From assembly GCA_003501765.1 (NCBI GenBank), contig DNOY01000251.1, positions 4,146-30,377 of the forward strand: DNA of 26,232 bases. The letters are read 5' to 3'. This DNA is from Cyanobacteria bacterium UBA11367 (GTDB lineage Bacteria > Cyanobacteriota > Cyanobacteriia > Cyanobacteriales > Coleofasciculaceae). The position numbers and the translations under genes were made by a program. Below the pieces are notes generated by a model, which was not told the DNA's origin, ran no database searches, and saw only the letters and a program-made list of their open reading frames with translations. Below, in pieces: positions 13,447-13,518 of the stretch (within the stretch, counting starts at the first letter, position 1; every line of letters begins with the position of its first letter).

Positions 13447-13518
13447 TAGGCATCTCCAGAAATTAGGTTTTCACCTAGACAGGATAAGGGTTTGAGATTA
13501 TTTTTGGAGATGTCTAAT
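13447..13518. mobile_element. MITE-like ~72-bp element, copy A (TIR catctccagaaa ... tttttggagatg)
   Basis: Copy A aligns almost base-for-base with copies at 17156-17230 (reverse), 19667-19740 (forward) and 19741-19810 (reverse). Its core is 'cctagacaggataagggtttgagatt'. Confidence 0.7.

Follow-up and report, generated by a model that had tools for sequence, protein, structure and literature searches.

A 69-bp non-coding MITE family with 3-bp AWT target-site duplications in filamentous cyanobacteria and its candidate IS5-family partner

Introduction

Four short, similar repeats occupy gaps between genes in the stretch of DNA analyzed here (the window; 26,232 nucleotides of a contig from Cyanobacteria bacterium UBA11367, whose genome is cyanobacterial in character, with psaD, GCGATCGC sites, and heptamer arrays). 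Are they members of a mobile family, and if so, what moves them? [quoted passage not shown] An abundance of MITEs is an established feature of cyanobacterial genomes (PMC11602168; PMC3184786). Here, we describe the boundaries, distribution, and insertion preference of the repeats, the insertion sequence (IS) whose ends they share, and the other readings that their structure permits.

Results

Four intergenic copies and their gene setting

The four copies (A to D) were recovered at the predicted places by reading, by a repeat finder, and by alignment, with pairwise identities of 79-90% (alignment and repeat finder, within the window). A pattern consisting of one terminus and the first bases of the core matched the window four times, at copies A-D, against a chance expectation of 0.41. 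The copies and the genes around them, among which psaD is also found, are as follows:

12081-13382, + strand: enolase
13448-13515, + strand: MITE copy A, 68 bp, 'AGGC' variant; flanks ATT (13445-13447) and AAT (13516-13518)
13589-16621, + strand: PlsY/PEP-utilising fusion, the 'dikinase' of the original prediction
17157-17225, - strand: MITE copy B, 69 bp
17224-18891, - strand: AMP-binding enzyme
19043-19555, - strand: DUF2628 protein
19669-19737, + strand: MITE copy C, 69 bp; duplication AAT/AAT (19666-19668 and 19738-19740)
19741-19809, - strand: MITE copy D, 69 bp, ATACATCTCC...GGAGAGGTCT; far flank (19810-19812) degenerate
19843-21369, - strand: trpE

All four copies are intergenic, although copy B overlaps the AMP-binding gene by 2 nt at its stop codon. 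The duplication of copy B, read in the orientation of the element, is ATT/ATT (17226-17228 and 17154-17156), and the present stop codon TAG (17224-17226) is composed of the T of this duplication and the AG of the element. The reconstructed end of the gene before insertion, ...CAT TGA, now reads ...CAT TAG; the AMP-binding protein is thus unchanged, one stop codon having been swapped for another. A 2-nt overlap between element and stop codon, like that of copy B, was also observed on another retrieved contig (L019; retrieved contigs and loci are given L numbers). Copies C and D adjoin each other head-to-head with a single AAT (19738-19740) common to both, forming an inverted repeat with 73-nt arms and 79% complementarity (repeat finder). 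Copy C is the younger member of this doublet and copy D the older and more diverged one; the copy on contig L031 is 97% identical to copy D.

Several other features of the window were recorded. Upstream of enolase, positions 8848-11493 (- strand) encode a protein of 881 aa that is homologous to eukaryotic Major Vault Protein and has Vault repeats and an MVP shoulder domain (Pfam E values from 1e-68 to 1e-53); its gene adjoins enolase in all source-species assemblies. The product of the gene at 13589-16621 (1010 aa) begins with a PlsY-like glycerol-3-phosphate acyltransferase domain followed by PPDK_N, Rph_4th, and a PEP-utilising mobile domain, an architecture resembling rifampicin phosphotransferase. 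Just upstream of copy A, at 13410-13442, lies a small dispersed palindromic repeat, GTAGGGTGCGTTATGCGAAAGCTAACGCACC, which recurs in the source species and Limnofasciculus with 87-95% identity (L015, 820-858; L021, 1806-1842; L035, 6581-6625). A hairpin with 25-nt arms of 92% complementarity (GTTTGTAGTAGGCACTTTAGTGCCT / AGGCACTAAAGTGCTTACTACGAAC) is situated between convergent genes at 3637-3703 and may be another repeat or a terminator.

Dispersal of the family beyond the window

A core pattern invariant in copies A-D was scanned across genomes, one per species, and yielded 37 further loci in about 20 genomes, all of them cyanobacterial, including at least 14 loci in the metagenome-assembled genome (MAG) of the source species. 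A Coleofasciculaceae MAG, CTOTU46674, was assigned to the source species on the basis of the 99.98% identity between its contig L027 and window positions 8729-13516. Seven loci were found in Limnofasciculus baicalensis, and the remaining hosts included several Nostoc species, Desmonostoc, Aliinostoc, Calothrix, and Brunnivagina. A BLASTN search of plasmids located an unannotated copy in pCC7120alpha of Nostoc PCC 7120 (164041-164110), as well as copies in A. variabilis ATCC 29413, Allocoleopsis PCC 7113, and Oscillatoria PCC 7112. Viral contigs scanned with the core pattern gave 0 matches, and hence no sign of carriage by phages.

The flanks of the copies are unrelated and unique to each locus, with no co-duplication of flanking sequence. 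These dispersed copies, together with the target-site duplications described below, bear out the expectation that the repeats constitute a mobile family rather than a local duplication. Within the source species, two loci with flanks unlike those of copy B contain the same element at 100% identity (L033, duplication ATT/ATT; L035, AAT/AAT), copy C is 100% identical to the copy at another locus (contig L028), and the 68-bp 'AGGC' variant is present in identical form beside enolase (L027, ATT/ATT) and beside the dikinase (L049, AAT/AAT), which indicates that amplification has been recent. Identical 69-mers at different sites were likewise found in Nostoc sp. P2039 and Desmonostoc geniculatum. 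The identity of 69-bp copies across genera, along with the presence of the partner IS (see below) on conjugative plasmids, hints at horizontal spread.

Anatomy and target-site duplication

The anatomy of the element was measured on 35 complete copies with flanks from about 20 cyanobacterial genomes. The length is 69 bp in 30 of these copies and 68 bp in the other five. Each copy starts with AGACATCTCC and ends with GGAGATGTCT, and the termini of about 15 bp (AGACATCTCC-R-R-AAA / TTT-Y-Y-GGAGATGTCT) enclose a non-coding core of about 39 bp; stop codons lie within the ends, and the element can hold no open reading frame (ORF). The terminal inverted repeats, AGACATCTCCRRAAA / TTTYYGGAGATGTCT (about 15 bp), are kept in every copy. 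The outer 'at/aat' bases that the original prediction wrote into the inverted repeat belong to a 3-bp target-site duplication.

This duplication, AWT, is concordant in 28 of the 35 copies, the matching 3-mers being AAT/AAT (15 copies), ATT/ATT (12), and AAA/AAA (1). Among mismatched flanks, ATT/AAT occurred three times and AAT/ATT never; where each flank was either AAT or ATT, the two agreed in direct sense in 27 of 30 copies. Because of this direct-sense agreement and the absence of AAT/ATT, the flanks represent a direct 3-bp target-site duplication and not an extension of the palindrome, which would produce the opposite pattern. The target consensus reconstructed from 26 non-redundant sites is Y|A-W-T|R, with Y in 23 and R in 22 of the 26.

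Three insertions (L011, L026, and the dikinase-locus copy of L049) lie within heptamer arrays. When the element and one AAT were removed, the 7-nt phase of the array became exact again in all three; in L049, the array runs on both sides of the element. The part of this array present in the window is as follows:

13516-13556, + strand: heptamer array AATGACT/AATGAAC, the insertion site of the dikinase-locus copy and an internal 'empty site'

Heptamer arrays (GTTGACA, CCCTACT, and others) are also present in the window at 13370-13405, 8730-8761, 21488-21534, and 25160-25295; such arrays are typical of filamentous cyanobacteria, and the MITE has repeatedly inserted into them at AAT. All source-species assemblies that reach the insertion sites have them filled, and no orthologous empty site was obtained from a sister strain.

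A 1.14-kb insertion sequence with the same ends

The search for a transposase with matching inverted repeats led to a 1.14-kb IS of the IS5 family. Metagenome contigs were scanned with a pattern combining the duplication and the terminus (YAWTAGACATCTCCRRAAANNB), one position of which was chosen so that neither end of the 69-bp family would match, and at least 120 loci were obtained. When the termini in these loci were paired, at least eight elements of 1135-1184 bp emerged, bounded by AGACATCTCC...GGAGATGTCT and flanked on both sides by matching AAT or ATT. Overall, at least 11 full-length IS copies of 1135-1184 bp with AGACATCTCC[GA]AAA termini were identified, and the flanks matched in nine of the 11 examined. 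The IS contains one ORF of about 300 aa, whose product matches the Pfam models PF13613 HTH_Tnp_4 (6e-20), PF13359 DDE_Tnp_4 (2.5e-30), and PF01609 DDE_Tnp_1 (8e-8), all above their cut-offs. The nearest NCBIfam model, IS5_4, scored 74-79 bits, below its cut-off of 140; the protein is thus best described as a putative divergent member of the IS5 family. Its Pfam domains and its duplication, which is of the ANT type that corresponds to the ISL2 subgroup, suggest that the IS is ISL2-like, and it may be related to IS702 of Calothrix PCC 7601.

Homologues of the transposase numbered 1885 at E<=1e-20, and the named ones all came from filamentous cyanobacteria (Scytonema, Gloeotrichia, Mastigocladopsis, Dolichospermum, Microcoleus, and Nostoc). 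The transposase was found on 39 cyanobacterial plasmids, annotated as 'IS5/IS1182 family transposase' or 'transposase family protein', the former being the PGAP label for its relatives. On three complete plasmids, the MITE termini were confirmed on either side of the transposase gene:

N. flagelliforme pNFSY08: IS of 1142 bp, flanks ATT/ATT, transposase WP_100897092.1
Nostoc sp. C057 p057_K: IS of 1143 bp, flanks AAA/AAA
Allocoleopsis PCC 7113 pMIC7113.01: IS of 1151 bp, flanks AAT/ATT, transposase WP_015180904.1

Allocoleopsis PCC 7113, a member of the source organism's family, carries the IS on pMIC7113.01 and the MITE on another plasmid. The similarity between MITE and IS is confined to the terminal 14-16 nt; since the cores are unrelated, the MITE did not arise by simple deletion from the 1.14-kb IS.

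No autonomous IS copy was found in about 400 kb of source-species DNA. Paired termini at IS-like spacing were absent from the 37 genome loci, the other contigs of the source species, and pMIC7113.02, as well as from the surroundings of the plasmid matches in Nostoc UHCC 0926 and PCC 7112, and neither of two transposase homologues looked up occurred in source-species assemblies. 'Transposase-like' ORFs picked by a regular expression in the core-pattern loci proved to be housekeeping genes and were discarded.

Sister elements sharing the termini

The same termini bound other non-coding elements. One of them adjoins copy A at the enolase locus in source-species assemblies, in the arrangement ATT-[A]-ATT-[155-bp element]-ATT:

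L027, 4790-4944 (also on L044): 155-bp non-coding element with termini AGACTTCTCCAGAAAA...TTCTGGAGATGTCT and an ATT duplication

This element has a long internal hairpin of its own (GGGGCGAAGCATAAGGG...CCCTTATGCTTCGCCC), and its use as a BLAST query against plasmids for a parent IS retrieved nothing. Among the metagenome matches listed, about 25 short elements of 63-119 bp, many of them exactly 69 bp, combine these ends with other cores, and one 504-bp deletion derivative carries the same termini. The 69-bp sub-families with other cores also have the AWT duplication (L061-L180, among the matches listed; e.g., L066, L120, L131, L138, and L142), and a ATAAGGGTT core motif recurs at the same position in several of these sub-families.

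We consider it unlikely that the family is more than a passive parasite, either through a second sequence constraint or through recombination that reshuffles gene neighborhoods. The conserved 69-bp length and the (A)TAAGGGTT motif could reflect such a constraint, for example, a subterminal binding site for a host factor or the transposase, or a processed small RNA. The hybrid flanks of copy A, described in the next section, could stem from real homologous MITE-MITE recombination reshuffling gene neighborhoods in natural populations.

The window is joined at copy A

Comparison with contigs of the source species revealed that the two sides of copy A come from different loci. Positions 1-13522 of the window are 99.8-99.9% identical to the enolase contigs L039, L040, and L041, which were picked by an identical enolase protein, whereas positions 13447-26232 are 100% identical to contig L049, which carries an identical trpE. 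In at least seven independent assemblies, the enolase locus consists of enolase, copy A flanked by ATT/ATT, the 155-bp element, and a response-regulator kinase gene. The L049 copy upstream of the dikinase, in contrast, has AAT/AAT flanks within a heptamer array, and the gene before it is not enolase. The flanks of copy A in the window are accordingly hybrid, with ATT on the left from one locus and AAT on the right from another, and enolase was directly upstream of the dikinase in none of the retrieved contigs. The join is probably a chimera created in assembly, the two loci sharing a perfect 68-bp repeat; otherwise, it would record a real recombination between MITE copies. The original description of a copy some 70 bp ahead of the dikinase start still holds. 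Many contigs stop within or at an element, which is normal for a repeat present in multiple copies.

Alternative explanations

Some properties of the element might suggest a structured RNA or a regulatory module (terminator, attenuator, small RNA, or promoter cassette) that is under selection for the action of its transcript or hairpin and in which the inverted ends form a stem. Single copies fold better than their shuffled counterparts (z from -3 to -5), and among 40 copies, all intergenic, 13 lie in convergent gaps and only three in divergent ones. The right end also carries an outward-facing TTGAGA-N16-T(C/A)TAAT, with a promoter-like score of 11/12 in copy C. However, the orientation of the copies relative to transcription is unbiased (five sense and 10 antisense in tandem contexts), and the consensus fold of 29 distinct copies is weak (-4.5 kcal/mol; covariation term, -0.18), a double change being seen in only 1 of 16 pairs. 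Promoter-like matches in the region are at chance level (16 against 16.5 expected), which leaves the proposal that copy A contributes the dikinase promoter unsupported. The suggested terminator function of the C/D doublet fared no better, as no terminator-like site matched any of copies A-D and the T-run falls inside the 3' arm, with none after the stem. A search of the window against Rfam returned 0 matches at the gathering score, and at E<=1 only noise from miRNA precursors (E values of 0.3-0.9; 16-18 bits against gathering scores of 75-98). A regulatory module would, moreover, fail to explain the direct 3-bp duplications and the IS with the same ends, and we judge this reading very unlikely.

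Two further readings concern the manner of spread. IS630-family elements are common in cyanobacteria, and all copies read ...(A/T)TA-GAC...GTC-TA(A/T)..., with TA beside GAC...GTC on both sides, so a Stowaway-like IS630/Tc1-mariner MITE (GACATCTCC...GGAGATGTC flanked by a duplicated TA) could be envisaged. A TA duplication, however, would leave three extra bases in the heptamer arrays of L011, L026, and L049, where AWT restores the phase perfectly; it does not predict the direct agreement of the left and right W in 27 of 30 copies, and the IS with these ends encodes a DDE_Tnp_4/HTH_Tnp_4 protein rather than a Tc1/IS630 transposase. The heptamer-phase test and the type of the partner transposase thus rule out an IS630-type TA duplication, and the chance that this reading is correct appears minimal. 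The crowding of four copies into 6.4 kb and the exchange of flanks at copy A in the window might instead point to local duplication or to a repeat spread by recombination (REP/BIME-like, through a tyrosine or HUH enzyme) without DDE transposition. This, too, is extremely improbable, given that the copies occur on many contigs and in many genera with unique flanks that were not duplicated along with them, and that their precise boundaries at 69 bp are constant and accompanied by 3-bp direct duplications; to our knowledge, REP and IS200/IS605-type elements make no direct duplications.

Discussion

Our data indicate that the repeats are very probably a MITE family mobilized in trans by the DDE transposase of a 1.14-kb IS5-family IS. 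The original proposal of a non-coding, MITE-like family with inverted repeats that moves in trans is supported by the copies, the AWT duplication, and the partner IS. From the shared termini, the shared duplication, and the co-occurrence of the two elements, we infer that the MITE would be moved by the IS transposase. The source genome would also have an active IS copy. The termini would serve as binding and cleavage sites of the DDE transposase supplied in trans by the IS, and integration at 5'-Y|AWT|R-3' would duplicate the central AWT. A fresh insertion would then recreate ...T|AWT|A... at each of its ends, so that new copies would tend to land beside old ones, which would account for both the head-to-head C/D doublet and the pair formed by copy A and the 155-bp element. 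As no IS copy was seen in the roughly 400 kb examined, the family could now be dormant in the source genome.

The element is a genuine MITE, apparently without an earlier name, and of an ordinary kind. Its description as new-looking is only partly apt: no name for the family was found, but copies reside in the long-sequenced PCC 7120 and ATCC 29413, and the partner IS is routinely annotated. A literature search with the terminus sequence retrieved unrelated primers only, and publications on the MITEs of Anabaena sp. 90, the ISs of 'Nostoc azollae', and IS702 contained no match to the 69-bp element. For specialists, such a MITE-IS pair is unsurprising; what the cyanobacterial mobilome gains is a defined pair, with known termini, a 3-bp AWT duplication, insertion at Y|AWT|R, and a partner of the DDE_Tnp_4 type, ranging over Nostocales, Coleofasciculales, and Oscillatoriales and including model strains. 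Of the secondary findings, the join of the window at one of its repeat copies is the most useful. The MITE breaks short-read assemblies, and a known family can help to flag chimeric MAG contigs.

Comparison with known systems

The closest parallels are the MITEs of the IS5/PIF-Harbinger (PHIS) group, such as Tourist/mPing and bacterial IS5-derived elements. These are likewise small, non-coding, and AT-rich; they share short inverted repeats with an autonomous element of the DDE_Tnp_4 type, make a 3-bp duplication, insert mostly between genes, and comprise several MITE families per set of termini. The element described here differs in being unusually short, in its fixed length of 69 bp, and in a core unrelated to that of the IS. 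The duplication also differs, being TWA in PIF/Harbinger and AWT, an ANT-type duplication (cf. PMC4482050), in the 69-bp element. A 5'-ANT-3' duplication is a signature of bacterial IS5 and eukaryotic Pangu transposons (PMC4482050), and it connects this MITE and its IS with eukaryotic Pangu, a branch of the PIF/Harbinger-ISL2EU-Spy superfamily. The partner IS is identical to the MITE in its terminal 14 nt (AGACATCTCC-R-A-AA) and likewise has AAT, ATT, or AAA duplications; it is unlike the MITE in its length of 1135-1184 bp and its HTH_Tnp_4 + DDE_Tnp_4 protein of about 300 aa.

Among cyanobacterial elements, Nezha, a MITE of Anabaena variabilis and Nostoc PCC 7120 reportedly named by Zhou, Tran, and Xu in 2008, invites comparison. 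It likewise occurs in the same model strains, combines inverted with direct repeats, and has an ISNpu3-like IS as its proposed partner. Nezha, however, measures 130-170 bp, and its direct repeat, such as CATTATCTAC, is about 10 bp long (PMC3184786; PMC6042816), one example being 138 bp with this repeat (PMC6042816). Identity with Nezha can be dismissed, since our element is 69 bp long with a 3-bp duplication; it is another family with another partner. Outside the cyanobacteria, Correia elements (CREE) of Neisseria, RUP of S. pneumoniae, and ERIC are also dispersed hairpin repeats of about 70-150 bp with inverted repeats and short duplications, often located near gene ends. They have no sequence relation to the 69-bp element, and they duplicate TA or have other partners. 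Several of them, unlike the 69-bp element so far, contain documented promoter, IHF, or RNase sites.
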